This document shows positions 24,228 through 42,726 of a stretch of DNA of 64,000 bases, piece after piece. The notes beneath the pieces are model-generated. The model was not told the origin of the DNA and did no database searches. It was given only the letters and a program-made list of their open reading frames with translations. The first letter of the stretch is position 1, and every line of letters starts with the position of its first letter. The stretch comes from Candidatus Omnitrophota bacterium. GTDB taxonomy: Bacteria > Omnitrophota > Gorgyraeia > Aquiviventales > Aquiviventaceae. The position numbers and the translations under genes are program-made. The stretch lies in assembly GCA_016209275.1 (NCBI GenBank), contig JACQWM010000053.1:11235-75234 (forward strand). Direction: 5' to 3'.

Positions 24228-24888
24228 GACACGATTGGCGTGGTGGGGGAAATGGAGCCTCGTCGCGTGCGTGGCGGCCGGCGCGTGGATCGGATTGCGC
24301 GCCGCCGGATTCGATATCGGCACCTTCTCGCCGGAGCGGATTCGGACCTATATTCTTTCCTTCGGCATCTGGGCGCCGGCGATGTATCTGGCGGTCTACG
24401 GCCAGCCCCTGATTCCGCTGCCCGCCACGGTGGCGATGGGCCTGGCGGGTGCGGCGTTCGGCCATACGTGGGGAGCGTTCTACGCCATGGCCGGGGCGCT
24501 GCTGCGCGCCGTCAGCCAATTTTTTGTCGCCCGATGGCTGGGGCGCGACGCGGTCGAACATCTGCTGAGGGGGCATGTGGCCGCCGTCGATCAGCAACTC
24601 GGTGAGAACGGTTTCAAAGCGGTGTTCTTCATTCGCCTGATCCCCAATGTCCCGTTCGATTTCCAAAACTACGGCCTGGGATTTTCCAAAGTCCGCCCCA
24701 TGCCGTATATGCTGGGCAGTGTTCTCGGCATCCTGCCGGGGTGCTTGGCGTATGTGTGGCTCGGGGAGTCGGTGATCAACCCGCGGCAGATCTGGAAATT
24801 GGCCCTCGTGCTGGTGGCGGTCACCAGCCTGTCGATGGCGGCCTCTGCGTGGCGGAAGCGGAAATCCGCCGCAGGAGCCGCGCCGTAG
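24220..24888 (+). CDS. DedA/TVP38/TMEM64 family membrane protein
   Basis: Conserved DedA core FIRLIPNVPFDFQNYGLG. Confidence 0.7.
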   Translation: MRKTRLAWWGKWSLVACVAAGAWIGLRAAGFDIGTFSPERIRTYILSFGIWAPAMYLAVYGQPLIPLPATVAMGLAGAAFGHTWGAFYAMAGALLRAVSQFFVARWLGRDAVEHLLRGHVAAVDQQLGENGFKAVFFIRLIPNVPFDFQNYGLGFSKVRPMPYMLGSVLGILPGCLAYVWLGESVINPRQIWKLALVLVAVTSLSMAASAWRKRKSAAGAAP

Positions 24889-24957
24889 CCTCACGCGAGG
24901 GCTGATTGCATCGCTGGATAGAGTGTGGTAGGCTAGCGAACACCACAGGAGGACACC

Positions 24958-25509
24958 ATGCATCGGAGCACGCGGTTGGGCGCTGGAGTGCTGGCGGCGT
25001 TGTTGATGGGCGGATGCTACGGCCCGTTTAATTTGACGCGGACCCTGTATCACTGGAACGGGAATCTTCAAGACAAGTGGGTGCGCGAGTTTGCCTTCAT
25101 CGTGATGGTGTGGGCTCCGGTCTATGGGTTGGCGACGCTGGGCGACGCGGTAATTTTCAACTCGATCGAATTCTGGGGAGGGAAGAACCCTGTCGAGCCG
25201 CCGAAGGGAGCCAGCCTGCCCGCCACCAAGCACATTGTCCGCGGCGATGCCGAGGCCTGGTTGACGTACCGCAACACCGCGGAAGGCCGCGAGCTCCTCG
25301 TGGAGCAATTCCAGCGCGGCCGTCCGGCCGCAACACTCCGGGTGACTGAGCGCCATGGCATGACGGTTGGCGAGGATGCCGACGGCCACGTGCTCTTGAC
25401 GGCCCAATCATTGGCTGATGGCCGGGTCGTCGTCAATAATGGGGAAGGGCAAACGGTGGCTTCCCATCCTGCGACCGAAGGGCCGCATCTCGCCTCCGTG
25501 CGCCGATAA
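24958..25509 (+). CDS. DUF3332-like lipoprotein
   Basis: Lipobox LLMGGC; FNLTRTLYHWN...IFNSIEFW pattern. Confidence 0.5.
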   Translation: MHRSTRLGAGVLAALLMGGCYGPFNLTRTLYHWNGNLQDKWVREFAFIVMVWAPVYGLATLGDAVIFNSIEFWGGKNPVEPPKGASLPATKHIVRGDAEAWLTYRNTAEGRELLVEQFQRGRPAATLRVTERHGMTVGEDADGHVLLTAQSLADGRVVVNNGEGQTVASHPATEGPHLASVRR

Positions 25510-27392: not shown

Positions 27393-28208
27393 CTAATACC
27401 GCTCAATCTGCCGCAATAAACAATAGACAAGGCGATGGTGGATCAGGAGCATGGTCAGCCCCTGGCGCAGAGCGGCGAGGCAGTCCTCGGCCGAGACCGC
27501 GAGGGCCTCGGCGGATGCGTGCTCAGTGAAAAAGTTGAGAAAATAGGCGTCGATGGCTCGCTGCGGCCGCTGCGGCAGCGTCTTGACCGTGGTGTAGACC
27601 AGATCCTGGTGGTAGTCGTTGAGGAATTCGTAGGGCGCGCACCGCAGATAGCTATACGGTGTCAGATTGCGCTGGCGCGGATCCGCCGGCTGCTCCAATG
27701 TCCGGTAGGCCTCAAGGATCAACGGCCAAAAACGCTGCCGCAGCCACTGCGCGAGCGACGGGGCGACGGGGGTCTGGGCGAACTCCAGGACGCAGACGCG
27801 GAAGACGCTGTGCACGATCCGCGAGTAATCCTTGTCGGTGACCGCGCGATAATCGCCCCGGATACCGGCTTTGTGCTTCTGGTCCCGCGGCAGAAACCGG
27901 CACCCCTCAGTGGAGAGCAGATAGTCCCAGCAGGCGGTGCTCCAGGCGAACAGCGGCGCAAATTCCAGCACGAGTTCCTGGTAGTCCGGCCCCAGGGCCG
28001 CCTCGGGCTCCTGCTGCTGGCGCCGGAAAATGTGCGCCACCAGCGCTTCGACGTTGGCGAGCTTGCCGCGCTGCAGGGTCATGAGTTCGGGCTGCTCGAA
28101 GACCTGCGGCAGCGCGATGTCCAGGGCCGGCTCATCCTGGACATAGACCAGATTCCCGTCGGAGATTGGCTCAAGATTGAGGTCAAGCATCGCACGCCAT
28201 TGTAGCAT
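27393..28208 (-). CDS. hypothetical protein
   Basis: Long ORF with no recognisable motifs; start chosen at MLQWRAMLDLN; divergent from a response regulator gene. Confidence 0.35.
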   Translation of the reverse strand: MLQWRAMLDLNLEPISDGNLVYVQDEPALDIALPQVFEQPELMTLQRGKLANVEALVAHIFRRQQQEPEAALGPDYQELVLEFAPLFAWSTACWDYLLSTEGCRFLPRDQKHKAGIRGDYRAVTDKDYSRIVHSVFRVCVLEFAQTPVAPSLAQWLRQRFWPLILEAYRTLEQPADPRQRNLTPYSYLRCAPYEFLNDYHQDLVYTTVKTLPQRPQRAIDAYFLNFFTEHASAEALAVSAEDCLAALRQGLTMLLIHHRLVYCLLRQIERY

Positions 28209-28304
28209 AGATGCCGTGGCGTTCCTATCGGGATCGTCCCTTGACAAGGCGGCGCACCACCAGCCATAGTCTAGACAGCAGGTTTCTGCGAAGAGGCGCT
28301 GCGC

Positions 28305-28703
28305 ATGACCATGATGACCCATCAGCCCCGCATCCTCGTGGTGGAGGATGACCCAGATGTGGCTTCAATGCTCGCGATCCGGCTGGTCGCGGCGCGCTAC
28401 GAGGCCCAAATTGTCCGCACCGGCGCGGTCGCGCTGGGCCGGCTCATGACCGAACGGCCGGATCTCGTGCTCCTGGACATTCAGCTGCCAGATATCAGCG
28501 GCTACACGGTCTGCGAAGAGCTGCGCCATCGGTATGAGCGGGGCACGCTGCCCGTCGTCATGTTCACCGTCTTGGATCGGCCGAGCGAGCAGCAGCGCGG
28601 GCTGGCGGCCGGGGCGGATGCGTACTTAAGCAAGCACGATAATATCGCCACCCTCCTGAAGACCATCGCCTTCCTCTTGTCCTCGCGGCCCGCCCCTGCC
28701 TGA
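28305..28703 (+). CDS. single-domain response regulator (CheY-like receiver)
   Basis: ILVVEDD...LVLLDIQLPDISG...AGADAYLSK receiver motifs. Confidence 0.75.
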   Translation: MTMMTHQPRILVVEDDPDVASMLAIRLVAARYEAQIVRTGAVALGRLMTERPDLVLLDIQLPDISGYTVCEELRHRYERGTLPVVMFTVLDRPSEQQRGLAAGADAYLSKHDNIATLLKTIAFLLSSRPAPA

Positions 28704-28745
28704 TTGGAGCTTGGCATTTAGCGGTTTTTTGCTAGACTCATCCTG

Positions 28746-30380
28746 ATGGATTCCCCATCGGCTCGTCGCATCGCGTGGTGGCTGCCGCCCATCCTCCTCT
28801 CGCTGGCCACCGCCTGGGCCTATCACAACAGCCTGCACGGGCCTTTTATTCTCGACGACACGCGGTGGATCATCGACAACCCCCAGGTGCGCAGCCTCTG
28901 GCGCATCGCGGATCCTCACGTGGCGGCGCCACTCGCCAAAAGCGTCGCCGGCCGGCCGCTGCTGACCCTTTCGCTGGCGCTCAATTACGCCCTCGGCGGC
29001 ACGAGCGTCGTGGGATATCACTTCGTCAATGTCCTCGCCCATCTCGCGGCTGGGCTGCTGCTGTTTGGGATCATCCGACGCACGCTCCGCAGCGCTGCGA
29101 TCGCCCTGGCAGCCGCACTCCTATGGCTGCTCCATCCGCTGCAGACGAGCAGTGTCACCTACGTCATCCAGCGGGCCGAAGTCCTCATGGGTCTGTGTTA
29201 CTTGGCGACGCTGTATGGCGTGATCCGAAGCGCGGCCTCGCCGCGCCCCAAGCGATGGTATGCCGTGTCCATCGCGGCCTGCGCGGCCGGCATGGCCGTG
29301 AAGGCCGTGATGGTGACCGCGCCGCTGATGATCTTGCTCTACGATGGTGTTTTTCTGTCAGGCTCGGTGCGCGAGGCCTGGCGTCGACGACGACCGGTGT
29401 ATCTGGGTTTGGGCGCGACCTGGATCTGGCTTGCCGCGCTCGTTATTACCGCGCAACACGGGGTGACGACTCCGACGGTGGCTTCGGCCCAGCAAGCGAG
29501 CCCGTTCGCCTACGGCGCCACACAGCTTGGCGTCATCCTGCATTATCTTCGGCTGGCCATCTGGCCCGCCGGCCTCTGTATCGATTACGACTGGCCGATG
29601 GCCGCGACGGCTGCCGACATCATCCCGCCGCTGGCGATGGTCGCAGTCCTTCTGGCGGCGACCGTGTGGGCGCTCATGTATCATCCTCGGATGGGGTATC
29701 TCGGGGCCTGGTGGTTTGTGATCCTCGCCCCCACATCCAGTATCATTCCGCTGGCGGATCTGGTCTTTGAGCATCGCCTGTATCTGCCGCTAGCCGCGGT
29801 CGTGCTGCTCATCGTGCTCGGGGCGGATGCCATTATGCGTCGCATGATTCCTGTTGTTGGCGCGCGCCGAGCGCTGGCCGTGCTGCTGGTGGGAAGTGCT
29901 GCCCTCGGGTTGGGGATCGCGACCCTCCATCGCAATGCGGTCTATCAGACCGAAGAGTCCATCTGGCGCGACGCCGTCGCCAAACAGCCCCGCAACGGCC
30001 GCGCGCACAATAACGTAGGCATTGCCCTCGGGAAGCAGGGCCGCTACGATGAGGCGGCGGAGCATTTTCTGATCGCCCTCTCGCGCGACCCCGCTAATAC
30101 GCAGCTCTACAACAACCTGGGCATTGTGCGGTCGCGCCAAGGCCGGAGTGATGAAGCGATCCGTTGGTATCAGAAAGCGCTGCAGCAGGACCCGGATGAT
30201 CCGAGCGTTCGCAATAATCTCGCGGTCCTGCTCGCCAAGCAGGGGAGATTTGACGACGCTCTCGCGCAGTATCGCGCAGCGCTGCGCGTCAATCCGGATG
30301 ATGTGGAGGCTCGCAAGAATTATGACGAGCTGACCCGCTGGCTGGCAGCGCAGAGGCCCTCAGGCCCAACGACGCCATGA
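28746..30380 (+). CDS. TMTC-like membrane protein: N-terminal polytopic DUF1736/PMT-like GT-C domain + C-terminal TPR repeats
   Basis: FILDDT..., AKSVAGRPLLTLSLALNYALGG..VGYHFVNVLAHL (matches the eukaryotic TMTC SYRPL...NY...GYH.VN motif); ~9 TM; TPR repeats at the C-terminus. Confidence 0.65.
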   Translation: MDSPSARRIAWWLPPILLSLATAWAYHNSLHGPFILDDTRWIIDNPQVRSLWRIADPHVAAPLAKSVAGRPLLTLSLALNYALGGTSVVGYHFVNVLAHLAAGLLLFGIIRRTLRSAAIALAAALLWLLHPLQTSSVTYVIQRAEVLMGLCYLATLYGVIRSAASPRPKRWYAVSIAACAAGMAVKAVMVTAPLMILLYDGVFLSGSVREAWRRRRPVYLGLGATWIWLAALVITAQHGVTTPTVASAQQASPFAYGATQLGVILHYLRLAIWPAGLCIDYDWPMAATAADIIPPLAMVAVLLAATVWALMYHPRMGYLGAWWFVILAPTSSIIPLADLVFEHRLYLPLAAVVLLIVLGADAIMRRMIPVVGARRALAVLLVGSAALGLGIATLHRNAVYQTEESIWRDAVAKQPRNGRAHNNVGIALGKQGRYDEAAEHFLIALSRDPANTQLYNNLGIVRSRQGRSDEAIRWYQKALQQDPDDPSVRNNLAVLLAKQGRFDDALAQYRAALRVNPDDVEARKNYDELTRWLAAQRPSGPTTP

Positions 30381-32224
30381 GCGCTCAGGTGATCCTGATC
30401 CTGCTCGCAGGCCTTGCGGCGTATGCGAACAGTTGTTCCGTGCCGTTTCTCTTCGATGATTTCAGCTCCATCGTCCACAATCCGCACCTGGCCCATCCGT
30501 GGTCGCCGGCGTTGTGGCTGACCGGGGGGCGGCCGATGACCGCGCTGTCATTCGCCATCAACTATGCCCTCGGAGGTTTTCAGGTGTGGGGGTATCATGC
30601 GGTCAATCTCGCCTTGCATCTTGCGGCTGCCCTCACCCTCTATGGCGTGATCCGGCGAACGTTGCAGACATCGCTGCTGCGCCCTCGATGGAAGCAGGAA
30701 GCCGCAGGCACCGCCTTCGCCGTGTCGCTGTTGTGGACCGTGCATCCGTTGCAGACCGAAAGCGTCACGTATATCGTTCAGCGGGGCGAATCGCTCATGG
30801 GCTTCTTCTACCTGGCGACCCTCTACGCGTTCATTCGGGGTGCAGCGACCCGTCGTTCGGCGTGGCGCAACATTTCGGTCATCGCCTGCGCGTTGGGGAT
30901 GCTCTCCAAACCGGTGATGATGACCGCCCCCGTGGCCGTGTGGCTCTATGACGCATTGTTGCTCTCACCCGGCTGGCTGGCGGCGTTGCGCCAGCGTCGA
31001 GGCTACTACCTCAGCCTCGCGGCCACATGGCTGCTCGGTCTTTTCTGCCTCTGGTTGGCGAGAGAGCAAGAGCTCGCCCGGCCTCATTCACAACTCGGCT
31101 CCATGCCGCTGGCGGCCACCCCGTTGGCGTATGCCGCGACACAACCCGGCGTCATTCTCCAGTATCTTCGGCTTGCCGTCTGGCCGCACCCGTTGGTGCT
31201 CGATTACCTCTGGCCGCTCGCGACCACGACGGCAGCCATCGTGTGGCCCAGCGCGGCGATCGGCATCTTCGTGATGGTGACAATCGTGGCGTTGATCCAG
31301 CGTCGGCCGATCGGGATGCTCGGCGCGTGGATCATCCTCACCCTGGCTCCCAGCTCCAGCGTCATCCCCATCAGAGATCTCGCGGCGGAGCACCGGATGT
31401 ATCTGCCGCTGGCCGCGGTGATTGCCTTCGCGGTGTTCACGGCATGGTGGCTCATCGGCCGGACTGTCAAGGGGCCGGCCGAACAACGCCGGCTCGCCAT
31501 CGGTCTCGTGATCGGCATCGCGGCGATCTTCACCGGCCTGACCATGCGGCGCAATGCGGATTATCGCAGCGAGTTGAGCATGTGGCAGGACATCATCGCG
31601 AAGCGGCCCCAGAATTTCCGAGCCCAGAACACGCTTGGCTCAGAGCTGCTACATCTTGGCCGGCGCGCAGAGGCGGTGAGCCATTTTGAGGCGGCGATTC
31701 GGCTGAAGCCCGACTATGTCGAGGCCTACTATAATCTCGGCTTAGCCCGGATGCTGCTCGGGCAGGCGGAGGCGGCCAAGGCGGCATTCCATCGCGCGCT
31801 TGAGCTGAAACCGGATTTGCCTGATGCGTATCATAATCTGGGTGTCGCACTGGCTGGCGAGGGTGATTTGGCTGGGGCAGAGGCCAATTACCGCGAAGCG
31901 CTGCGGTTGTTACAACAGGAGAAAGAAGCGCCCCCGGTGGCTGGTGTACGCTGGGTGTCTCGCGGGGACGAGCTGATGACGCATCTCGCCCTCGGCGCCG
32001 TCCTGGCTCGGCAGGGTCGATTCGAGGAAGCCGCGGCCGAGCTGCAAGCCGTGGTGCGGATCGCGCCCAATGACCCGAATGCCCACTACAATCTCGGCAA
32101 CGTGTATGTTGAGCAGGGGCGGCTGGAGGACGCCATCGCCGAGTACCGCGCGACTCTTCGCCTCGATCCGCAGCATCCCCAGGCGAAAGCGAACCTTGAC
32201 CTCGCCCTCGCCCGCGTGCCATGA
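30377..32224 (+). CDS. TMTC-like membrane protein paralog (DUF1736/PMT-like + TPR)
   Basis: Tandem paralog of the previous gene (AINYALGGFQVWGYHAVNLALHL); ATGA coupling; longer TPR region. Confidence 0.65.
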   Translation: MSAQVILILLAGLAAYANSCSVPFLFDDFSSIVHNPHLAHPWSPALWLTGGRPMTALSFAINYALGGFQVWGYHAVNLALHLAAALTLYGVIRRTLQTSLLRPRWKQEAAGTAFAVSLLWTVHPLQTESVTYIVQRGESLMGFFYLATLYAFIRGAATRRSAWRNISVIACALGMLSKPVMMTAPVAVWLYDALLLSPGWLAALRQRRGYYLSLAATWLLGLFCLWLAREQELARPHSQLGSMPLAATPLAYAATQPGVILQYLRLAVWPHPLVLDYLWPLATTTAAIVWPSAAIGIFVMVTIVALIQRRPIGMLGAWIILTLAPSSSVIPIRDLAAEHRMYLPLAAVIAFAVFTAWWLIGRTVKGPAEQRRLAIGLVIGIAAIFTGLTMRRNADYRSELSMWQDIIAKRPQNFRAQNTLGSELLHLGRRAEAVSHFEAAIRLKPDYVEAYYNLGLARMLLGQAEAAKAAFHRALELKPDLPDAYHNLGVALAGEGDLAGAEANYREALRLLQQEKEAPPVAGVRWVSRGDELMTHLALGAVLARQGRFEEAAAELQAVVRIAPNDPNAHYNLGNVYVEQGRLEDAIAEYRATLRLDPQHPQAKANLDLALARVP

Positions 32225-32236
32225 TGAACTGCGTCG

Positions 32237-33664
32237 ATGTCTTTTAACACGCTAGAATTCGCCGTCTTTTTTATCGTGGTGTACGGGCTGTACTGTGGCT
32301 TAGGCCACCGGTGGCAAAACCTCATGCTGCTCGTGGCCAGTTATGTTTTTTACGGCGCCTGGGATTGGCGATTTCTCGGCTTGCTCTTGATTTCAACCGT
32401 CTTGGATTTTTTCTGTGGCCTGGGCATCCATGGAGCCCACTCGGCGCGGATCAAGCGCATGGTGTTGGGTCTGAGCGTGGCTGGGAACCTCGCCATCCTG
32501 GGGTTCTTCAAGTATTTCAATTTCTTCGCGGGGTCATTCGAGAGCCTCCTCGCATCCGTCGGATGGACGGTGCATCCTCACACGCTGCAGATCATCTTAC
32601 CGGTTGGCATTTCGTTCTATACGTTCCAGACGATGAGTTACACCATCGACGTCTACCGGGGTCAGCTTCAGCCCACGCGCCGATTTCTTGATTTTGCGCT
32701 GTTCGTGACGTTCTTTCCACAGCTCGTCGCCGGTCCCATTGAGCGGGCGAAAAACCTCCTCCCGCAGGTGCTTGCGCCGCGCACGCTGAGTCTGGAACGT
32801 TTTGAGGAAGGGTGTTTCCTCATCCTGTGGGGCTATCTGCAGAAGGTTCTGGTGGCCGACTCGCTGGCCCAATTCGTCGATCCGGTGTTCACCGCGGGCT
32901 CGCCTGCGAGCGGACCGGTCGTGCTCATCGCCGCGTACGCGTTCGCCTTTCAGATTTACTGCGATTTCGCGGGGTATTCGAACATCGCCCGCGGGCTCGG
33001 CAAATGCATGGGCTTCGAGTTGATGGCGAATTTCAATTTGCCGTATCTCGCCACCAATCCGAGGGAGTTCTGGAACCGGTGGCACATCAGCCTCTCGACA
33101 TGGCTGAGGGACTATCTCTACATCCCGCTGGGAGGCGGCCGTGGGCACGCGCTGACGATATTCAGAAACCTGGCGGTGACCATGCTCCTCGGCGGATTAT
33201 GGCACGGCGCTTCGTGGACCTTTGTGGTCTGGGGGGCGTATCATGGCGGCCTGCTGATTGCGCACCGGCTGGTAGAACCCGCCAGGCAAGCACTCTCAAC
33301 CGACAAGAGGTCGTTTCCTGGCATGGTGTGGCAGGTGGTGAACATGGTGGTGTTCTTCCATTTGGTCTGCATCGGGTGGGTGATCTTCCGGGCGCCGTCA
33401 ATCAGCGCGGCTTGGGAGTTGCTCACTCGAATGGCATTGCAGGTGAACGCGCGGGATCTCTGGCAGGCTATGATGGCGCAGCGCTGGTTGGGGTGGCTCG
33501 CGCTCTTTGCTGTGGTGGAGTACAGCCAGTTCAGGCGCGGGGACCGTCCGGCGATCCTGGCACGGCATCCACTGCTCCGAACAGCCGGCTATATGCTCGT
33601 CTTCTATGTGACCATGTTCTTCGGCGCGACCGCGGGGAAGCCGTTCATCTATTTTCAATTTTAA
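32237..33664 (+). CDS. MBOAT family membrane-bound O-acyltransferase (AlgI/DltB-like)
   Basis: MBOAT conserved region WHISLSTWLRDYLYIPLGG and catalytic-region His (WHGASW). Confidence 0.8.
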   Translation: MSFNTLEFAVFFIVVYGLYCGLGHRWQNLMLLVASYVFYGAWDWRFLGLLLISTVLDFFCGLGIHGAHSARIKRMVLGLSVAGNLAILGFFKYFNFFAGSFESLLASVGWTVHPHTLQIILPVGISFYTFQTMSYTIDVYRGQLQPTRRFLDFALFVTFFPQLVAGPIERAKNLLPQVLAPRTLSLERFEEGCFLILWGYLQKVLVADSLAQFVDPVFTAGSPASGPVVLIAAYAFAFQIYCDFAGYSNIARGLGKCMGFELMANFNLPYLATNPREFWNRWHISLSTWLRDYLYIPLGGGRGHALTIFRNLAVTMLLGGLWHGASWTFVVWGAYHGGLLIAHRLVEPARQALSTDKRSFPGMVWQVVNMVVFFHLVCIGWVIFRAPSISAAWELLTRMALQVNARDLWQAMMAQRWLGWLALFAVVEYSQFRRGDRPAILARHPLLRTAGYMLVFYVTMFFGATAGKPFIYFQF

Positions 33665-33781
33665 CCGGGGCAGGAGAAGTCCATTTCCGAAGAGCGCACG
33701 TCGTTAACGCCAGAGCACATCGCGTTTATCCAGGCCAACTGGAAGACGGCCAGCTGCCGCCAAATCGCGAAGCACCTCAAC

Positions 33782-34954
33782 GTGCCGCGCTCCGACGTGG
33801 CGGAGGCCATCCAGGCTTTGCAGCGCGTCCAGCGCGCTCGATGGCGCGGGGCGAGCGGCTCGCAACTGGCCATCACGCTCTTCTTGAGCCTGACGGTCGT
33901 GCCGGCACTCATCGGGAAACTCGTGATTCCGCTGGAGTGGTACGCCTTTCGATGCTGGGAAGTGATGGTGGATCAGCGGCCCGCTGGGGCCAGACCGGGA
34001 TGGTGGTATCCCAACCAGGTGCTGCAGAAGCTGGAGCACGACGATTTGGTGCCACGCACGCGGTATTCGAAGCCGCGGAATGTGGTGTGGTACACGGATG
34101 CGTACGGCTACCGGAATCGTCCGCGGCCGGGGAACGAGCCCATCGACATCGTGGTGATCGGTGATTCAGAAATCGTCGGCTCATCGATGACGCAGGACGA
34201 CATCCTTTCAGAGGTGTTGGAGCGCATGACCGGCCGCCCGGTGTACGCATATGCCCCGGCGTACTTCGGCAAATTCGTGGAGGATCCGCGGTTTCAACAG
34301 CGCCCGCCAAAGGTCGTCGTGTTTTCCTTCATGGAACGGTCCGTGGCTTGGCGGTTGGTACCCCTCGGCGTCCCATATCCTGGTCGCGTGCGGGTTGGCG
34401 GCCCACCGAACCCGTACAGGCTACTTCCGGCACGCGCGCAGATCGCGTGGGACAAGATTCGGAAGAAACCGTTTCTCGTTTCGCATCTGATCCGTCGAAT
34501 CACCGGGCGTCATCCTCTAGGGCTCTCGGTGATCAAGAGCAACCAGTCTGATATGTTTTTCTTCCGCGATGATCTTGCGGCGATCGGCTACCACCAGCAG
34601 CATCCAGAGGACATCGACAGGACCGTGCGGGTGATTCGCCAGTATCATCACGCCATGGCGATGCGGGGCGTACAGTTTCTCTTCGTGGGAAATCCGAGCA
34701 AGGAGATCGTCTATTGGGATTTGGTCCCGCCGGAATATCGGCGAGGCCTTCGCCCCCCGGATTTTTTCACGCAGCTGCTCCCCAAACTGGAAGCGGCTGG
34801 CGTGCCCACACTGGATTTGCGCCAGGTGTATCGCGAGGCTGGCGTGCCTCAGGGCGAACTCGTCTTTCACCTGGGGAATACACATTGGAATCCGCACGGC
34901 GTGCGCCTGGCGGCGAAGGCGATTGCGGAACGTCTTACCCCCTGGCTGGAATAG
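33782..34954 (+). CDS. membrane-anchored SGNH/GDSL-like partner of MBOAT (AlgX/AlgJ/DltD-like)
   Basis: Signal-anchor TM then IDIVVIGDSE (GDS block); adjacency to MBOAT. GTG start; the in-frame upstream region 33665-33781 has no stop but no canonical start. Confidence 0.45.
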   Translation: MPRSDVAEAIQALQRVQRARWRGASGSQLAITLFLSLTVVPALIGKLVIPLEWYAFRCWEVMVDQRPAGARPGWWYPNQVLQKLEHDDLVPRTRYSKPRNVVWYTDAYGYRNRPRPGNEPIDIVVIGDSEIVGSSMTQDDILSEVLERMTGRPVYAYAPAYFGKFVEDPRFQQRPPKVVVFSFMERSVAWRLVPLGVPYPGRVRVGGPPNPYRLLPARAQIAWDKIRKKPFLVSHLIRRITGRHPLGLSVIKSNQSDMFFFRDDLAAIGYHQQHPEDIDRTVRVIRQYHHAMAMRGVQFLFVGNPSKEIVYWDLVPPEYRRGLRPPDFFTQLLPKLEAAGVPTLDLRQVYREAGVPQGELVFHLGNTHWNPHGVRLAAKAIAERLTPWLE

Positions 34955-35016
34955 GACAGCCCCGGTGAGTGAGCGTCACCGACGCGATCGCCGCATCCGC
35001 CGATCCTGCCGCGCGG

Positions 35017-35409
35017 CTACGCCAGCGTCACTTCTCCGAGCAGGAGCGTGACCGTTTTCAGCAGCTCCATCGGCTCAAACGGCTTGGTCATGTAGGCATC
35101 GGCCCCGAAGGCATAGCCGCGCAATTGGTCGATGGGCTTATCCATGGCTGTCAACATCAGAATCGGCACTTCCCACGGATGGCACAGCTTCCGCAGCTGC
35201 TTGCACACTTCATACCCGGTGATATCGGGCAGCCGCAAATCCAAAATCACCAGGTCTGGCCGATGCTCCGCCACATAGCTCAGCGCCGGCTTGCCGGCGT
35301 GCTCGGCATGGACCTCGAACCCGGAAGATTCCAAGTGCCATTTCACCAAGCTCGCGAGCGACGTTTCATCCTCCACAATCAAAATCTGTTTGCGATGGGC
35401 CATCATCAC
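35017..35409 (-). CDS. single-domain response regulator (CheY-like receiver)
   Basis: ILIVEDE...LVILDLRLPDITG...FGADAYMTKP. Confidence 0.75.
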   Translation of the reverse strand: MMMAHRKQILIVEDETSLASLVKWHLESSGFEVHAEHAGKPALSYVAEHRPDLVILDLRLPDITGYEVCKQLRKLCHPWEVPILMLTAMDKPIDQLRGYAFGADAYMTKPFEPMELLKTVTLLLGEVTLA

Positions 35410-35801
35410 CGATGCGCCTCCTTCCCTTGAGAGAGCTTCGCCTCCACACTGCTCAAGAGCTCCTCCATGCTGACAGGCTTCGCCAGAAAGAAATTTCCCC
35501 CGATATAGCCGCCGGTGTCTCGCGCCTCCTCTTTCGAGACGACGGCGGTCAGAAAGACGATCGGGATGGCGTTCAGCGTGGCATGTTCCCGGAGCTGCGC
35601 GCCGATTGCCGCGCCATCCGCATCGGGCATGATGATATCCAGCAGGATCAGGTCCGGGTGAAACGCCTCGGCCTCGGCGAGCGCCCGCGCTCCCTCGTTG
35701 ACCTCTCGGACCTCATACCGGCCCGCTTGCTCCAGGTTCAACCGGAGCAGCCGCGTGAAACTTGGTTCGTCATCGATGATCAGGATCCGTTCTTTGCCCA
35801 T
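35406..35801 (-). CDS. single-domain response regulator (CheY-like receiver)
   Basis: ILIIDDE...LILLDIIMPDADG; overlaps the neighbouring gene. Confidence 0.75.
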   Translation of the reverse strand: MGKERILIIDDEPSFTRLLRLNLEQAGRYEVREVNEGARALAEAEAFHPDLILLDIIMPDADGAAIGAQLREHATLNAIPIVFLTAVVSKEEARDTGGYIGGNFFLAKPVSMEELLSSVEAKLSQGKEAHR

Positions 35802-38113
35802 CGGCCATCACCTCCTTCGTCATGATCGGCTTTCAGCACAATCGTTGCGCGCGCCCCGCCTTCCGGCCGGTTCTTCACCGTGATCATTCCGCCGTGCAAC
35901 CGGATGATCGTTTTGGTCACCGCCAGGCCCAGCCCGGTGCCCTTGCCGGTGGGCTTCGTCGTGAAAAAAGGATCGAAGAGCTTCAGCAGGTGGACATCGG
36001 GGATCCCCACCCCCGTGTCATCGACTTCGACCATGACTACGGCATCTCCCGCGGCAAACACGCCGGTGTCGCGATGCCCCACACCGTCGGAGGCCTCGGG
36101 CAACGTTGTCTGATACGTGCGGATGGACAGCGTGCCTCCCTCAGGCATCGCATCGATGCTATTCATGAAGAGGTTGACGAAGACTTGCTCGAGTTTGGTC
36201 TGATCGCGCCTCACCATCGGCAGGCGCGGCTCAAAAGAGGTCGCCACGCGGACATGCTGCTTGTCCAGCGCATGCCGGACCAGGAGCAGGGCCTGTTCAA
36301 TAGTGGCATTGAGGTCGCCGGCCTCCAGGTTTACCTCAGTCGGCGCGGAGAAATCCAGCAATCCTTTAATGACCCGATCCGCCCGCCAGGCGGCTTGGTT
36401 CAAATCCTGCAGGACGACGCCGACATGCGGCCCGTTGCCCTGCACGTGTCGTGAGAGATAGTCGATGCCCATCACCATAATCGCGAGCGGATTTTTCACC
36501 TCATGCGCCACGCCGGCGGCCAGGCGGCCGACGGATTCGAACTTCGCCGCTTGAATCAATCGCAACTGGGCTTCTTGCAGCTCCTGGTTCGCTCGCCGAT
36601 ACTTGGCCAGCGTTTGCAATAATTCCTCCTGCTGCTCCTTGAGCAATGTGTTGGTTTGCTCCAGCTGGATGGCCGCGCGCTTGCGTTCCGTGATATCGCG
36701 GATAATGGCGGTGACGAATCGTCCTTCCTGGGTCATCCAGCTCGCCAGGGATAATTCCAGCGGAAATTCCATCCCATTCTTTCGTTGGCCGGCCAGCTCG
36801 ATGGTTCTCCCCATGACCCGGGCTTCCCCCGTCTTCAGAAACCGGTTGAAGCCTTGTTGATGCGCCTCATGGAATCGCTGCGGCATCAGCAGGGTCAGCG
36901 GCTGGCCCAGCGCCTCCTGCGGCGCATACCCAAACATCGCTTCAGCGCCCTTGTTCCATGCGATCATGTTCCCCGCGTGATCGGCAGAAATGATGGCATC
37001 TTGCGCGGATTCCACGACCGCCCGCAACCGTTCTTCGCTGGTGCGCAGCGCATGCTGGATGAGCTTGCGTTCGGTGATATCGAGGAGGACGTAGACCGTT
37101 CCGGCCCGAGTCCCCCGCGGATCCATGATGGTGGCGGCCGAGACGCTCACGTCGACTGGTTCCCCAGGCTTGGTTCGGCAGACCATCTCGCGATCCCGAA
37201 TGATGGCTTGCTCGGTGAGATGCGCCATGGGCATGGCGCGTTCAAGCGACGTTTCAAACAGCCTGGTAATCGGCTGGCCGATGAGTTCAGCAGGCGAGTA
37301 GCCCAGCAGTTCACTGACGGCGCGATTGGCGACGCGGACGTCGCCCTCCATATCGACGACGAGGACGCCTCCGTTCATCGTCTCCAAAATTTGGCTCGTT
37401 GCAAACTGCGGTGTCAGATCGACGAGCCGGTACCGCCAAATCGCCCGCGCGACCAGGCCGAGGAAGATCAGCACTGGCACATACCCGAACGGGTAGGCTG
37501 GGAGCCCAAATTTGGCCAGATAATCCCAGGTGCCGAGATAGAGAATGCCGAACGCGCCCAAAAATGTCCGGCTGCGTTGCCACCGCGCCGTGCCTGGTCG
37601 CGCCTGGCGGTATTCCACCCAATACAACCGCAGGCTCATGACGAGCATGCCGAAGAAAAAGGTCAAGTAGGAGACGCTGAGCCATCCATACCGCGGGTAA
37701 TAGCCCCACCGGTACTGATAGAGCCCGCCAATCAGGGCATCGGTGCTGACGATGGCTGAGGCAAACGACACCGCGAGGAACCAACCGAGCCAAAGGATCA
37801 CCCGGTTTTCTCGATACATCCCCAACGAGACGGCGGCAAAATGGCTGACGGCGACCGGGATGAGCGGAATGGTGAGATACGCAGTTTTCGCCCACCACAA
37901 GGCCATGTCGACATCAGCCGCGCCATACATGTGGGAAAACGCGAAGAGCCACCAGCCGATCGTCGCGCTCATCAGCAGAAACAGCAGGCTGACGACGGAG
38001 GCGCGTTCGCGAATGACGACCGCCAACGCCAACCCGAAGGCGGCGAACGCGGTCAGGCTTGTGGCAGCAGCCAGAGGTTGATCCATAGTGTCAGCCAACA
38101 AAAGACCCTTCAC
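35780..38113 (-). CDS. hybrid-architecture sensor histidine kinase: N-terminal multi-TM sensor + 3 PAS + HisKA + HATPase_c
   Basis: ~8 TM N-terminal; PAS repeats; H-box AHEVKNPL; G-box GTGLGLAV. Confidence 0.8.
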   Translation of the reverse strand: MKGLLLADTMDQPLAAATSLTAFAAFGLALAVVIRERASVVSLLFLLMSATIGWWLFAFSHMYGAADVDMALWWAKTAYLTIPLIPVAVSHFAAVSLGMYRENRVILWLGWFLAVSFASAIVSTDALIGGLYQYRWGYYPRYGWLSVSYLTFFFGMLVMSLRLYWVEYRQARPGTARWQRSRTFLGAFGILYLGTWDYLAKFGLPAYPFGYVPVLIFLGLVARAIWRYRLVDLTPQFATSQILETMNGGVLVVDMEGDVRVANRAVSELLGYSPAELIGQPITRLFETSLERAMPMAHLTEQAIIRDREMVCRTKPGEPVDVSVSAATIMDPRGTRAGTVYVLLDITERKLIQHALRTSEERLRAVVESAQDAIISADHAGNMIAWNKGAEAMFGYAPQEALGQPLTLLMPQRFHEAHQQGFNRFLKTGEARVMGRTIELAGQRKNGMEFPLELSLASWMTQEGRFVTAIIRDITERKRAAIQLEQTNTLLKEQQEELLQTLAKYRRANQELQEAQLRLIQAAKFESVGRLAAGVAHEVKNPLAIMVMGIDYLSRHVQGNGPHVGVVLQDLNQAAWRADRVIKGLLDFSAPTEVNLEAGDLNATIEQALLLVRHALDKQHVRVATSFEPRLPMVRRDQTKLEQVFVNLFMNSIDAMPEGGTLSIRTYQTTLPEASDGVGHRDTGVFAAGDAVVMVEVDDTGVGIPDVHLLKLFDPFFTTKPTGKGTGLGLAVTKTIIRLHGGMITVKNRPEGGARATIVLKADHDEGGDGRWAKNGS

Positions 38114-38303
38114 CTCAATGAAGCGAAGGGCATCGCCGACGCTGTCTTCGGCAACCCAGCTGCCCTGTCGCTTCTTGAAGTGCGGGCCTATGGTTTTGCG
38201 TCCCCGGTTTTCGCGGGGTTTGCTCGTTCGGACAGGTCGTGCACGATAACTACATGTTCTATATCATATTTTTTGCCTTCGTTTCAAGGTATACTCTAGA
38301 TTT

Positions 38304-41300
38304 ATGCCCACAGCATACTGTTCAGCGTTTTCGGTAGACCATCCCCGGTTGGTCATTGGCCTGACCGCTGTGATCACGCTGCTCTTCGGCGCGCAGTTTT
38401 CGAAGATCACCGTCGACACGGACCCCAAGCACATGCTCCCCGCGACCTCACCGGTGCGGCAGTACAACGACCAGGTCGAGCGGGAGTTTGTCCTGCATCC
38501 GGATGTCATCGTGCTGGGCATCGTCACCCCACCACCTGCAGCAGCGCCAGGCGTGATCAATCCGCGCACGCTCAAGACGGTCGCGGAGCTGACCCGCGCT
38601 ATTCAGCGGATTCCTGGGGTCATCTCGCGTGACGTGGACAGCCTGACCAGCGTGGACAACGTGACTTCAGTGAATGGCGAGCTCGTCGTCAAACCCGCCG
38701 TGGGAGACATTCCGCAATCTGAGCGAGAGCTGCTCCAACTTCGGGAGTCATTGCTTGGCAATCCCCTGTTAGTCAACCGTCTGATATCGGCTGATGCCAC
38801 CGCTACGGCGATCTTCATCCCCATTGAACCCACGGCGAATGGCAAGGTGGTGGCGGACAAGATCCGCGCCCTGCTTCCGAAAGCGCCAGACGGTGAGCAG
38901 TTTTACCTTGCCGGCGATCCGGTGGCCCGCGACACCTTCGGCGCCGAGATGTTTCGGCAGATGGCCCTCTTTTCGCCGATCGCCGGGATGGTCATGTGCG
39001 TGGCCCTCTGGCTGATGTTCCGCAGCGGGACGGTGATTTTGGCGAACATGAGTGTGGCGATGATCAGCATCATCTGGAGCCTGGGCGGCTTGATCGGGTT
39101 AGGGTATCCCGTGCACATCATGAGCTCCATGAGCCCGGTCTTTCTGATGGCGATCGCCACGGATGCGGTCCACATCTTTAACGAGTTTGCTTTTCAAGTT
39201 CGAGAGATCAAGGACAAGCGCCGAGCCGTCTTGGAAACGATGGCGGTGGTCGGGGGGCCGGTGTTCTACTCCGATGTCACGACGGCGGTGGGCTTCGCCG
39301 CGCTGGCTAGCGGCGCCATTATTCCAGTCAAGATCTTCGGCCTCGTCGTGGGCTTCGGCACCATGGTCATTCTGCTCATGAGCTACACCCTCGTACCGGC
39401 GCTCCTCATGCTGATGTCGAATGAACGCATGACGAAGATGACGCGGCCACAGACGGCAACGAGCCGTTCGTCGTTTCAGTGGCTATCACGCCTGGGCGAG
39501 TTCTGCGTGCGCAGGACGAAGGCGATTCTCTTGGCAGGCCTGGGATTGTTCGTCGTGGCCGCAATCGGTCTGGCGCGCATTCATGTCAACAACAACATGG
39601 TGCACTGGTTCAAGTTCCACAGCGTCGTGAGGACGGCCGACCGGGTGCTGAATGAGCGCTTAGGAGGCACGTCAACCGCCTATCTGGTCGTGCAAGCACG
39701 CACAGAGGGAGCGATGGGAGAGCCGGCGATGCTGCGCCAGATTGAGGGCCTCCAACGGGAGCTGGAGCGCGATCCCTTGGTTGGCAACACCCTCTCCGTC
39801 GCCGATTACCTCAAGCGGGTCAATCGAGTGCTGCACGATGACGATGCGGCCTTCGAGCGCATCGCGGCGTCCGCCCGCGAGGCCGGCCAATACCTGTTCC
39901 TCTTGCAGTCCGCCGCCAAACCGCGCCACCTTGATAACGTCGTCGATTTCTCGCTCCAGCAGGCGAACATCCTCCTCCAACTGAAAAGCTGGGATGCCGG
40001 GGTGATGGAACAGGTGATGGCTCGCACACAGGCGTACCTGGCTCAGCATCCCCTCCCTGATGAGGCCATCGTGAAACCCGCCGGCATCGCCTACTTCAAC
40101 ATGGTCTGGAACCATGAAGTGCTCTGGGGGATGCTCATGAGCTTCCTCTGGGGGCTCGCACTGGTCTTTATCCTCTTGATGATTGAAACCCGGTCGTTCT
40201 TCTGGGGGATCGTGAGCTTCCTGCCGCTGTTATTCACGATCGCCGTGATCTACGGGGTCGTCGGGTTCATCGGCAAGGATTTCGACATGCCGGTGGCGGT
40301 CCTCTCCACGCTCTCCCTCGGCATGGCCATTGATTTCGCGATCCACTTTGTCGGCCGCTTCCAGCAACGGTACCGGGAGCAGCCGGATCTTTCGGCGGCG
40401 CTCGTCTGGACCGTGACTCGACCGGGGAAGGGCATTTTTCTCAATGCGATCCTGTTTGCGCTGGGGTTTGCCGTGATGGCCTTCGCGGACCTCACCCCGT
40501 ACATCACCGTGGGCGTCTTCATGGCGGCGATCATGGTTCTCTCTTCGGTCATGAGCGTCATCTACCTGCCGGCGTTGATCCAGCTGTTGAAGCGCGTGTT
40601 GCTCAAAGGGGGTGGGATGAAACCTGTCACGTCGATGCTGCTGGTGCTGTTGCTGTCTGCTGGCGTGTGGAGGCCTCGCGCGGCTCAGGCCGCCGAACCC
40701 CCTAGCGGTCGCTCCATCATGGAGCAGACGCTCCTCGCCTACTACTACTCAGGCAAGGATGCCAAGGAAGAGGTGCTCATGCGGATCGTGAACCGCCAGG
40801 GTCAGGCACGGAAACGCCGCCTGACGCTGTTGCGCAGGGATCAGACCGACGGGGGCGAGCAGTCCTATTACCTTTACTTTCATGAGCCCGCCGATGTGGA
40901 GGGGATGAGCTTCCTCGTCGAAAAGCACCCAGGGCGGGATGATGACCGCTGGCTCTATCTGCCGGCTATTGATTTGGTCAAACGGATCGCCACGTCTGAC
41001 AAGCGCACCAGCTTCGCCGGCTCCGATTTCACCTACGAGGATGTGTCCGGCCGGGATCTTGACGAGGATGCGCATGAGGTCGTGGGCGAGGAAGCGCTCG
41101 GCGAGCATGCCGCGTTCGTGGTCAAGAGCACGCCAAAACGTCCAGAGGGGGTGGAGTTTAGCTACCGCAAATTTTGGATCGACAAGGCCACGCACCTGCC
41201 GCTGAAGGTGGAGCATTACGATCTTCAGGGCGCGCTGTACAAGGTCTACGAGACGCAGGAGATCCAGACGATCCAAGGCACGCCCACGATCACGAAGGCG

Positions 41301-41432
41301 GTGATGAAGGATCTGGGAAACGCGCGGTTCACGGAGATGGCGCTGCACGCGGTGTCCTACGACATGGGACTCTCAGCCGATGTCTTTCAAGAACGCAGCC
41401 TGCGCAGGCCGCCGGCGCAGTGGATCCGCTAG
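38304..41432 (+). CDS. MMPL/RND-superfamily exporter fused in-frame to a C-terminal LolA-like (outer-membrane lipoprotein-sorting-like) periplasmic domain
   Basis: 12-TM MMPL topology with two large periplasmic loops (~780 aa); then a signal-peptide-like hydrophobic segment MKPVTSMLLVLLLSAGVWRPRAAQA and a ~250-aa soluble domain resembling LolA-like proteins; single uninterrupted ORF. Confidence 0.65.
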   Translation: MPTAYCSAFSVDHPRLVIGLTAVITLLFGAQFSKITVDTDPKHMLPATSPVRQYNDQVEREFVLHPDVIVLGIVTPPPAAAPGVINPRTLKTVAELTRAIQRIPGVISRDVDSLTSVDNVTSVNGELVVKPAVGDIPQSERELLQLRESLLGNPLLVNRLISADATATAIFIPIEPTANGKVVADKIRALLPKAPDGEQFYLAGDPVARDTFGAEMFRQMALFSPIAGMVMCVALWLMFRSGTVILANMSVAMISIIWSLGGLIGLGYPVHIMSSMSPVFLMAIATDAVHIFNEFAFQVREIKDKRRAVLETMAVVGGPVFYSDVTTAVGFAALASGAIIPVKIFGLVVGFGTMVILLMSYTLVPALLMLMSNERMTKMTRPQTATSRSSFQWLSRLGEFCVRRTKAILLAGLGLFVVAAIGLARIHVNNNMVHWFKFHSVVRTADRVLNERLGGTSTAYLVVQARTEGAMGEPAMLRQIEGLQRELERDPLVGNTLSVADYLKRVNRVLHDDDAAFERIAASAREAGQYLFLLQSAAKPRHLDNVVDFSLQQANILLQLKSWDAGVMEQVMARTQAYLAQHPLPDEAIVKPAGIAYFNMVWNHEVLWGMLMSFLWGLALVFILLMIETRSFFWGIVSFLPLLFTIAVIYGVVGFIGKDFDMPVAVLSTLSLGMAIDFAIHFVGRFQQRYREQPDLSAALVWTVTRPGKGIFLNAILFALGFAVMAFADLTPYITVGVFMAAIMVLSSVMSVIYLPALIQLLKRVLLKGGGMKPVTSMLLVLLLSAGVWRPRAAQAAEPPSGRSIMEQTLLAYYYSGKDAKEEVLMRIVNRQGQARKRRLTLLRRDQTDGGEQSYYLYFHEPADVEGMSFLVEKHPGRDDDRWLYLPAIDLVKRIATSDKRTSFAGSDFTYEDVSGRDLDEDAHEVVGEEALGEHAAFVVKSTPKRPEGVEFSYRKFWIDKATHLPLKVEHYDLQGALYKVYETQEIQTIQGTPTITKAVMKDLGNARFTEMALHAVSYDMGLSADVFQERSLRRPPAQWIR

Positions 41433-42726
41433 GAGGTCCATCGTCGTCGGCGCTGGCCTCGCCGCTGTTGGGCTCTGGCTGTTCCCAGCACGCGTGCGGG
41501 CCGGCGGACAGCTCCCAGATCTCCACGGGTTTGTCGAAGCGGTCTATGGCCCGAAGTTCCTCGGGGATGAGCGCACGCAGAAGGACGAGTTCAACGTCTT
41601 GGAGCAGCGCTTTCAATTAAAAGCCGCCTGGCGGCCGCCCCGCTCAGCACCGTTGGCCTCGTGGAACCCTGAAGTTTTCTACAAAGGGGATCTGGTCGTT
41701 GATGAGTACGACGAAGCCCTCCGCTACAAGATCCGTGAGGCGCATGTCTCGGCCAGCCCCTTGGCTTGGCTGGATGTCAAGCTGGGCCGGCAGATTCTCA
41801 CCTGGGGAACCGGCGATCTGCTCTTCATCAACGATGTCTTTCCGAAAGATTTTGTCTCCTTCTTTATCGGCAGGGATGATGAATATCTCAAGATGCCTTC
41901 TGATGCGGCGAAGCTCTCTTTCTTTAGTCCCTGGGCTTCGCTCGATCTGATCCTCATCCCCTTCTTTACGCCTGACACCCCCATCACCGGCAACGGCTTA
42001 AGCTTCTTTGACAGCCTCCTTGGCCGTCTGGCCGGGAAGGAGTCGAATCGCCTGTTAACGGAGCCATCGTTCCAGCCGAAGAACACCGAGATCGCCGGTC
42101 GGGTCAGCCGAATCATTGGCGGCTATGAAGTCGCCGGGTATGCGTTCCGAGGATTCTTCAAGCAAGCCATGGGCATCAAGAACCAGGATGCCCGGGAGCT
42201 GTTCTATCCGGAGCTTGCGGTCTACGGGGCGAGCCTCCGGGGCCCTGTTCCAGCGATTGGCGGCATCACCTATGGCGAGATCGGCTACGACGACTCGCTG
42301 GAGGATCGCAGCGGCAAGAACCGCCTGATTGAAAATGCCTTGATGAAATACCTCGCAGGCTATGAGCGCGATTTTCCAAACGATCTTCGCATTGGGCTCC
42401 AATATTACGTCGAGCAGATGCTGGACTTCGATCAGTTCACGGCCGGCTTCCTGCCCGGGGATGTGCCGCGTGATCAGTTCCGAGAACTTGTGACGTGTCG
42501 GATCACCAAGCTGTTCTGGATGCAGACGCTTGAGGCCTCTTTCTTCGTCTTGTACTCACCGACCGACGAGGACGCGCACCTGCGCCCCCGGCTGACGTGG
42601 CAGGTCAATGATCAGTGGAAGGCCACCATCGGGGCCAACGTCTTCTTCGGCACGCATGACTGGACCGAGTTCGGGCAGCTTGAAGATAACGATAATCTGT
42701 ATGTGAGAGTGCGGTACAGTTTCTGA
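41380..42726 (+). CDS. DUF1302-like putative outer-membrane beta-barrel protein
   Basis: Signal peptide; beta-rich; C-terminal ...YVRVRYSF (terminal Phe typical of OMPs); partner of the RND/LolA-like gene. Confidence 0.5.
   Translation: MSFKNAACAGRRRSGSARRSIVVGAGLAAVGLWLFPARVRAGGQLPDLHGFVEAVYGPKFLGDERTQKDEFNVLEQRFQLKAAWRPPRSAPLASWNPEVFYKGDLVVDEYDEALRYKIREAHVSASPLAWLDVKLGRQILTWGTGDLLFINDVFPKDFVSFFIGRDDEYLKMPSDAAKLSFFSPWASLDLILIPFFTPDTPITGNGLSFFDSLLGRLAGKESNRLLTEPSFQPKNTEIAGRVSRIIGGYEVAGYAFRGFFKQAMGIKNQDARELFYPELAVYGASLRGPVPAIGGITYGEIGYDDSLEDRSGKNRLIENALMKYLAGYERDFPNDLRIGLQYYVEQMLDFDQFTAGFLPGDVPRDQFRELVTCRITKLFWMQTLEASFFVLYSPTDEDAHLRPRLTWQVNDQWKATIGANVFFGTHDWTEFGQLEDNDNLYVRVRYSF

Follow-up and report, generated by a model that had tools for sequence, protein, structure and literature searches.

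The locus at positions 28305-38113 of a 64,000-nucleotide stretch of DNA from a Candidatus Omnitrophota bacterium (assembly GCA_016209275.1, contig JACQWM010000053.1; the whole stretch is called the window below) raises the question of whether genes that lie together also act together. Two tandem genes for TMTC-like membrane proteins, each with a glycosyltransferase C (GT-C) domain and tetratricopeptide repeats (TPR), are followed by an MBOAT (membrane-bound O-acyltransferase) plus an SGNH partner, with two-component genes on either side. A first-pass annotation had taken the whole for a single signal-regulated system that glycosylates and acylates the cell envelope. Bacterial TMTC-like GT-C/TPR proteins are very numerous, no function has been assigned to them in the literature searched, and an operon partner hinting at their substrate would be useful. 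If the MBOAT pair O-acylated sugars that A- and B-like enzymes put on proteins, this would be a bacterial pathway of protein O-glycan acylation and would give the large TMTC-like family its first functional assignment. The reading favoured here, with a probability of about 0.6, is instead that two independent, widespread, periplasm-facing envelope-modification modules are juxtaposed in one probable operon of an Omnitrophica metagenome-assembled genome. Both modules are best read as members of already known kinds of envelope enzyme, not as a new system.

Gene order and conservation of the neighbourhood

Five genes follow one another on the plus strand. A receiver-only response regulator (RR1, 132 aa, 28305-28703; Pfam Response_reg 2.4e-22), recognized as a regulator in the first-pass annotation, is followed by the GT-C/TPR paralogues A (544 aa, 28746-30380) and B (615 aa, 30377-32224), the MBOAT acyltransferase (475 aa, 32237-33664) and the membrane-anchored SGNH acyltransferase partner (390 aa, 33782-34954). 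RR1 and A are 42 nucleotides apart, A and B overlap by 4 nucleotides, 12 nucleotides separate B from the MBOAT, and the gap between the MBOAT and its partner is 117 nucleotides. A promoter-like site precedes RR1 at 28241-28270. Because the spacing is tight and terminator-like sites are not in excess across this run of genes, the five genes probably constitute one operon.

The earlier claim of an integrated system had been tied to co-conservation of the genes in other genomes, and adjacency was tested from both sides. The partner-centred set consisted of 40 loci from species-representative genomes of Omnitrophota, Planctomycetes, Pontibacter, Syntrophaceae, Leptospirales, Lentisphaerae, Acidobacteria, Chloroflexota and others (more than 8 phyla), in which GT-C/TPR genes were sought within 10 kb by phmmer and a hidden Markov model (HMM) of the family. 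The GT-C/TPR-centred set consisted of 81 loci totalling 878 kb, namely 80 metagenome loci and one encoding contig (L051). The MBOAT gene adjoined the partner gene in 38 of the 40 genome loci, and a GT-C/TPR homologue was present within 10 kb in none of the 40. Likewise, neither an MBOAT nor a partner gene was found in any of the 81 GT-C/TPR-centred loci. When 47 distinct MBOAT-centred loci were considered, a single one (L133) contained a GT-C/TPR gene, a rate that may be compatible with chance in paralogue-rich genomes. The genes are not co-conserved and the integrated glycosylation-plus-acylation system is unsupported; therefore, the most fitting view of the locus is that envelope enzymes of two known kinds have come to lie side by side here.

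The MBOAT-SGNH pair is a self-contained two-gene module that usually resides in ordinary polysaccharide clusters. Close relatives of the pair were found in classical polysaccharide clusters at L011, which holds the nearest homologue of the partner, and at L134, L136, L137, L039, L022 and L010. Six close relatives of the MBOAT itself (55-60% identity) are located on encoding contigs (L132-L137); that of L132 lies among redox genes and that of L135 has no annotated glycan genes nearby. Polysaccharide genes are mostly missing near the GT-C/TPR loci, of which only L051 was inspected in detail. An ordinary MBOAT-SGNH acyl relay is not a reliable clue to the substrate of GT-C/TPR enzymes, and therefore the locus does not open the question of their function.

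One pair of an MBOAT and an AlgJ-like partner was encountered on a 624-kb contig (L027, JACPTG010000001.1) labelled Candidatus Woesearchaeota archaeon, a member of the DPANN group. It represents either an archaeal instance of the module or a binning problem.

The two enzyme modules

Paralogues A and B share 44% identity over 523 residues. The distance between them is about equal to that separating either from homologues in other phyla, so they did not arise by recent duplication. A search with the first 400 residues of A yielded more than 2551 homologues, about 50% identical, from Verrucomicrobia, Omnitrophica and Planctomycetes, which the sources name 'TPR repeat protein', 'TadD' or, for several close homologues from JGI, 'protein O-mannosyl-transferase'. 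Tandem arrays are common in the family, with two to six paralogues within about 20 kb in 31 of the 81 GT-C/TPR loci (for example L059, L073, L068 and L121). At L051, five TPR proteins of about 600-716 aa are encoded side by side.

The description of A and B as tandem paralogues with polytopic N-termini and C-terminal TPRs was confirmed, and the TMTC/PMT-like motif quoted for them (..GRPL..NYALGG..GYH.VN..H) is present in family-invariant columns. Two details had to be revised. The TPR arrays, described as long, are short, with approximately four repeats in A and six in B. Pfam TMTC_DUF1736, assigned to both proteins, was detected in neither, even at E<=1; the N-terminal match is to PMT_2 only, at 37.2 bits in A (above the cut-off of 26.1) and 24.9 bits in B (just below it; 2.6e-5). 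Among 17 N-terminal domains of the family, PMT_2 matched nine, and TMTC_DUF1736 gave weak matches in three (E 0.009-1, the best being 0.0089). Human TMTCs score E <1e-30 for TMTC_DUF1736 (PMC7801869).

An AlphaFold2 model was generated on 59 sequences and had a predicted local distance difference test score of 91.4 and a predicted template modelling score of 0.90. A Kyte-Doolittle scan identified 10 hydrophobic segments; adding the first helix of the model, at residues 4-29, brings the total to about 11 transmembrane helices. The architecture of A is TMTC-like, a GT-C domain at residues 1-400 being followed by TPRs that Pfam places at residues 400-530 and the model at helices 403-536. Directly after the first transmembrane helix, in what is predicted to be the first outside loop, comes the DD motif (D37-D38 of A, D27-D28 of B), which is invariant in 59 of 59 sequences. 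From where this motif lies and from the count of approximately 11 hydrophobic helices, the TPR domain is predicted to be on the periplasmic side.

The GT-C fold and catalytic signature expected of the N-terminal domains are supported by the confident model and by the retention of DD and the other motif columns. Across the 59 sequences there is little or no variation in the columns DD, RP, RxE, K, D..W and E.R.Y; the further invariant residues are, in the numbering of A, R70-P71, H130-P131, R143, E145, K186, D200, E342, R344 and Y346. Both A and B keep every family-invariant residue. Motifs M1-M7 of human TMTC1-4 are DD, SHKSYRP, RxD, KE(T/Q)xxT, DW, PxxP and ERxxY (PMC7801869). In a by-eye match to Table 4 of that study, the family columns correspond to M1-M5 and M7. 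M1 is present, M2 is reduced to R-P, M3 reads RxE, M5 D..W, M6 PxxxxxP and M7 EHRxY, and M4 keeps its K and T while its Glu is replaced by Ala in A (residue 187, 29304-29306) and by Pro in B (residue 179, 30911-30913). The predicted structure and these motifs place A and B in the GT-C superfamily, with a multi-pass GT-C fold. A sequence search of the PDB with the N-terminal domain, alone or as a 17-sequence profile, matched no solved structure, and the full-length search was dominated by matches to the TPRs.

In their predicted architecture, A and B resemble the eukaryotic protein O-mannosyltransferases TMTC1-4, which have an N-terminal GT-C domain of about 11 transmembrane helices followed by a non-cytoplasmic TPR domain, and which, in the by-eye match, share DD in loop 1, ..RP, R-x-(D/E), the K of KE(T/Q)xxT, D..W and E(H)RxY. 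In addition, an HP(L/I)(Q/H)T segment of the window family matches 'AVHPIHT' of TMTC3 (PMC7801869). The window proteins differ in that they lack TMTC_DUF1736 and the H-K of M2, and in the replacement of the M4 Glu by Ala or Pro. TMTCs also have more TPRs than the four to six found here. Moreover, the window proteins are bacterial and their donor would, by analogy, be undecaprenyl-linked. Fungal PMTs (Pmt1/2/4) and bacterial ArnT and PglB resemble A and B in the PMT_2 match and the acidic motif in the first outside loop, but no solved chain was matched by sequence, even with a family profile, and a TPR domain takes the place of the MIR domain. Pseudomonas aeruginosa TfpW, the pilin D-arabinofuranosyl transferase, is a GT-C enzyme that has 11 predicted transmembrane helices, carries a DDx motif and ends in a TPR domain on the periplasmic side. 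Judged by its described features, it is a bacterial GT-C protein with periplasmic TPRs, like A and B are predicted to be, and it glycosylates a protein. Whereas tfpW adjoins the gene of its substrate, pilA, the locus studied here has no gene for a pilin in its vicinity.

The MBOAT of the second module (Pfam MBOAT 3.9e-24, 86 bits) contains WHISLSTWLRDYLYIPLGG and has at least 8000 homologues at E<=1e-60. Its C-terminus, ...GKPFIYFQF, carries the FIYFQF acyl-shuttle motif, and F[IL]YFQF is the C-terminal end in all 34 of the close relatives collected. DltB is its top match both among solved structures (6bug, 8e-31), where GLWHGASW aligned to the WHG catalytic His, and among NCBIfam models. Nevertheless, a Dlt identity was rejected: the score for the DltB equivalog TIGR04091 is 182 bits against a cut-off of 375, DltA and DltC are not encoded in the window, and the MBOAT itself bears the shuttle motif, which in Dlt systems resides on the microprotein DltX. 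For the remaining proteins of the locus, NCBIfam gave sub-threshold equivalog matches only.

In PatA-type MBOATs, the Tyr of a C-terminal FxYxxF is auto-acetylated (Anderson et al. 2025, PMC12148441). The acyl-Tyr of PatA then feeds the Ser of its SGNH partner PatB, which acylates the polymer (PMC12148441). The partner in the window is anchored by a single transmembrane helix and carries a GDS motif; the first-pass annotation had described it as a membrane-anchored GDS-motif protein. The invariant blocks of the partner family are TD.YG.R, G-D-S and H-W. A profile of the family matched AlgJ at 2e-16, AlgX at 3e-12 and PatB1 at 4e-5, and the partner structurally matches PatB. Its blocks follow the canonical SGNH order, beginning with GDS and closing with D-x-H-W, whereas the order in AlgJ and AlgX is permuted; the partner is thus circularly permuted relative to those proteins. 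The family comprises 733 clusters of 50% identity at E<=1e-30. Pfam ALGX spans only the C-terminal half of the partner, the N-terminal half is without a Pfam or NCBIfam model, and NCBIfam has no family model for the SGNH partner. A description of this AlgJ-related family, in canonical order and poorly covered by Pfam and NCBIfam, is useful in itself.

The Ser-His-Asp triad is incomplete in the window protein. It retains Ser129 and His368, with Asn366 standing where the Asp would be. Residues 365-369 (34874-34888, plus strand) read G-N-T-H-W where the family has D-D-T-H-W. The Asn at position 366 is unique to this protein among 149 family sequences, which have Asp in 144 cases and Glu in three; position 365 is Gly, compared to Asp in 136 of 149. 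The full-length open reading frame (ORF) keeps Trp369, the TD.YG.R block and P305 in addition to Ser129 and His368. This natural Asp-to-Asn variant of the SGNH triad is both useful and new.

Assignment of the two genes to a PatA/PatB- or AlgI/AlgJ-type acyl-transfer pair is well supported by their sequences. At the level of the components, the earlier view of the pair as O-acylating envelope enzymes holds through the catalytic His, FIYFQF and the relatedness to AlgJ, AlgX and PatB1. The same arrangement of MBOAT His, C-terminal FxYxxF and an adjacent gene for a membrane-anchored SGNH protein with Ser and His is found in PatA/PatB, AlgI/AlgJ/AlgX, WssH/WssI and PatA1/PatB1. The window pair departs from these in the block order of its partner, permuted with respect to AlgJ and AlgX, in the Asn in place of the catalytic Asp, and in that no alginate, cellulose or Ape genes are nearby. 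Identity with the alginate AlgIJFX system was rejected, given the different block order and the absence from the window of AlgF, of AlgX with its carbohydrate-binding module and of alginate synthesis genes. A peptidoglycan PatAB/Ape identity was also rejected, the accessory genes being absent and the scores sub-threshold.

The 117-nucleotide gap between the MBOAT and the partner (33665-33781, plus strand) is in frame with both genes and contains neither a stop codon nor ATG, GTG or TTG; the start codon of the partner is GTG. The gap translates to a helix-turn-helix-like peptide (..SCRQIAKHLNVPRSDVAEAIQAL..). Pfam returned only sub-threshold matches of helix-turn-helix type for this peptide (CENP-B_N, E 0.0034), and it is not conserved among homologues.

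Proposed activities and rival readings

In the favoured reading of two independent modules, the first would consist of A and B, each with about 11 transmembrane helices, a TPR domain in the periplasm and DD in the loop that follows the first helix on the outside. If they work like PMT, TMTC and TfpW, these enzymes would use a polyprenyl-phosphate-linked sugar as donor, on the outer side of the inner membrane, and transfer the sugar to an acceptor selected by the TPR domain. Because of the analogy with Pmt4, TMTC and TfpW, the acceptor would most likely be Ser or Thr of exported proteins. The second module would operate as an acyl relay of the PatA/PatB or AlgI/AlgJ type, in which the MBOAT His would transfer an acyl group from acyl-CoA, most probably an acetyl, to the Tyr within the C-terminal FIYFQF. 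The acyl group would then pass to Ser129 of the partner and from there to a hydroxyl of an extracytoplasmic glycan, an acceptor supported by the polysaccharide context in which relatives of the pair are usually found. The notion of a shared substrate, in which the acyl acceptor is the GT-C product, has no support from conservation.

Several observations weigh against two independent modules of this kind. Four of the genes are densely packed on the same strand, which is usually a sign of shared function. Adjacency was sampled in about 130 loci, and the association seen at L133 may recur at low frequency. TPR-less PMT_2 proteins were found beside the MBOAT pair in two polysaccharide clusters (L134 and L136). 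The M4 Glu, a proposed metal ligand that is Glu in 45 of the 59 family members, is lost in both A and B. Since the partner is without the triad Asp, the relay may be impaired. Furthermore, the 64-kb window contains no GtrB-like polyprenyl-phosphate sugar synthase, GtrA-like protein, flippase or polysaccharide genes; no donor or acceptor pathway is evident close to either module.

The possibility was considered that the genes form one signal-regulated pathway after all, with the GT-C/TPR enzymes glycosylating an envelope protein or glycan, the MBOAT-SGNH pair acylating the same sugar and the two-component genes exerting control. The genes are on the same strand and closely packed with a receiver gene just upstream, both modules are predicted to act at the periplasmic face, and L133 likewise has an MBOAT pair among GT-C/TPR genes. 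At L133 (3753-17428), an MBOAT 58% identical to that of the window and an LB_356-type partner, both encoded on the plus strand, are surrounded by four GT-C/TPR genes and one for a TPR protein of Dpy19-like type, all on the minus strand. The two groups thus lie on opposite strands, however, and the LB_356-type partner belongs to a different SGNH family. The lack of co-conservation in the 81, 40 and 47 loci, the regulators without output domains, the convergent kinase operon and the rarity of kinase and regulator matches beside either module elsewhere (described below) make a single pathway improbable. A narrower version, in which A and B, perhaps paired in a heterodimer like that of Pmt1 and Pmt2, attach O-linked sugars to proteins of the periplasm or the surface and the co-transcribed pair O-acylates the protein-linked sugar, is regarded as very unlikely.

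A serious rival to the protein acceptor, though still an unlikely one, is that the GT-C/TPR enzymes act on a glycan or lipid-linked acceptor and so decorate or extend an envelope polysaccharide, with the TPRs as a scaffold to the envelope machinery and the MBOAT pair modifying the same or another polysaccharide. Pfam assigns A and B to the ArnT-like family PMT_2, and arrays with as many as six tandem paralogues resemble glycan-diversifying families. TPR-less PMT_2 proteins of 388-446 aa, which are ArnT-like GT-C proteins, do occur in Omnitrophota polysaccharide clusters with the MBOAT pair (L134, 13094-14260; L136, 319-1659); the GT-C/TPR family HMM did not match them. On the other hand, the architecture and motifs of A and B resemble those of TMTC, TfpW is the only characterized bacterial enzyme that combines GT-C and TPR and its acceptor is a protein, and the GT-C/TPR loci mostly lack nearby polysaccharide genes, with L051 the one inspected in detail. 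A different doubt concerns the second module, whose relay might be crippled or repurposed; the partner would then be an inefficient transferase, a subunit for binding or the product of a gene in decay, and no acylation step would work. The Asn at position 366 and the Gly at position 365 point in that direction. By what is known of Ser-His hydrolases, Asn could still orient the His, the remaining catalytic and family residues of the partner are intact in a full-length ORF, and the MBOAT, which keeps both its His and FIYFQF, is likewise intact; loss of the acylation step is accordingly quite doubtful. Two independent modules remain the preferred reading.

Regulators, riboswitch and surroundings

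The three genes on the opposite strand are, as the first-pass annotation had stated, a kinase with PAS domains and two receiver-only regulators. Pfam identified a sensor histidine kinase (35780-38113, minus strand) with a 7TM domain (HisKA_7TM), two PAS domains, HisKA and HATPase, followed by regulators of 131 aa (35406-35801, minus strand; Response_reg 1.7e-22) and 130 aa (35017-35409, minus strand; Response_reg 1.2e-26), the latter being the last gene of the operon. The first of these regulators overlaps the kinase stop by 22 nucleotides, and the start of the second overlaps the stop of the first by 4 nucleotides. The kinase operon and the plus-strand operon are convergent, with stop codons 62 nucleotides apart, and therefore the kinase operon and the glycosyltransferase/acyltransferase operon are not one unit.

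Pfam found no output domain in any of the three regulators. The NCBIfam equivalog scores of RR1 are all far under the cut-offs (for example, EpsW at 64 bits versus 200). Kinase or regulator matches are rare elsewhere, occurring in at most 5 of the 81 GT-C loci and in 3 of the 40 MBOAT-pair loci. With regulators that are receiver-only and kinase or regulator genes so seldom found beside the modules, a two-component system dedicated to the locus is not supported. RR1 and the kinase operon were each considered as a conserved partner of either module and rejected, this not being seen in the sampled loci. The proposal of a signal-regulated system is left unsupported by the absence of output domains, the convergence of a kinase operon that has its own riboswitch, and the rarity of the regulators at other loci.

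The 5' leader of the kinase operon contains the aptamer of a GEMM-I cyclic-dinucleotide riboswitch (38147-38234, minus strand), which matched Rfam RF01051 over the full model (1-87) at 53.9 bits, compared to a gathering score of 35. The riboswitch shows that the kinase operon has its own input; it provides no link to the glycosyltransferase/acyltransferase genes. The kinase operon is a separate signalling unit under a cyclic-dinucleotide riboswitch, and position is its sole tie to the two modules. Between the aptamer and the kinase start lies a terminator-like hairpin (38105-38131, minus strand) with a 12-pair stem followed by a U-tract (CTTTTGTTGG), a probable expression platform. The GTG at 38113, the listed start of the kinase ORF, falls inside this hairpin and an in-frame ATG is located 27 nucleotides downstream, at 38086; therefore, the ATG is probably the start of the kinase, which would then be 768 aa long. 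In the ligand-free minimum free energy fold (z = -3.74), the 5' arm of the hairpin pairs with the 3' half of the aptamer. This alternative pairing would act as an anti-terminator, suggesting that ligand binding ends transcription and that the element probably works as an OFF switch. GEMM-Ib riboswitches that bind cGAMP have A in place of G20 (PMC6140456). The nucleotide that appears equivalent to G20 of Vc2, by an inferred mapping of positions, is A, the signature of a cGAMP-responsive or bispecific GEMM-Ib element. A GEMM-I riboswitch with the A20 signature before a kinase operon in Omnitrophota is a useful and new observation.

The GC content is 58-66% over the whole window and a uniform 0.60-0.64 across the locus, and a horizontally acquired island was rejected on this ground. 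Loci identical to that of the window are present in three Logan assemblies. The flanking genes are unrelated and include those for a fatty-acid desaturase, COX3, BacA/UppP, a bile-acid symporter, metal ABC transporters, LeuRS and UvrD. Upstream of the locus, two ORFs had no Pfam match even at E<=1, one of 454 aa (24043-25407, minus strand) and one of 271 aa (27393-28208, minus strand), the latter divergent from the RR1 gene. At the other end, divergent from the riboswitch-controlled kinase operon, 38304-42726 (plus strand) encodes an RND-LolA fusion of 1042 aa, in which an HAE3/MMPL-type RND transporter carries a C-terminal LolA-like domain, followed by a DUF1302 protein.

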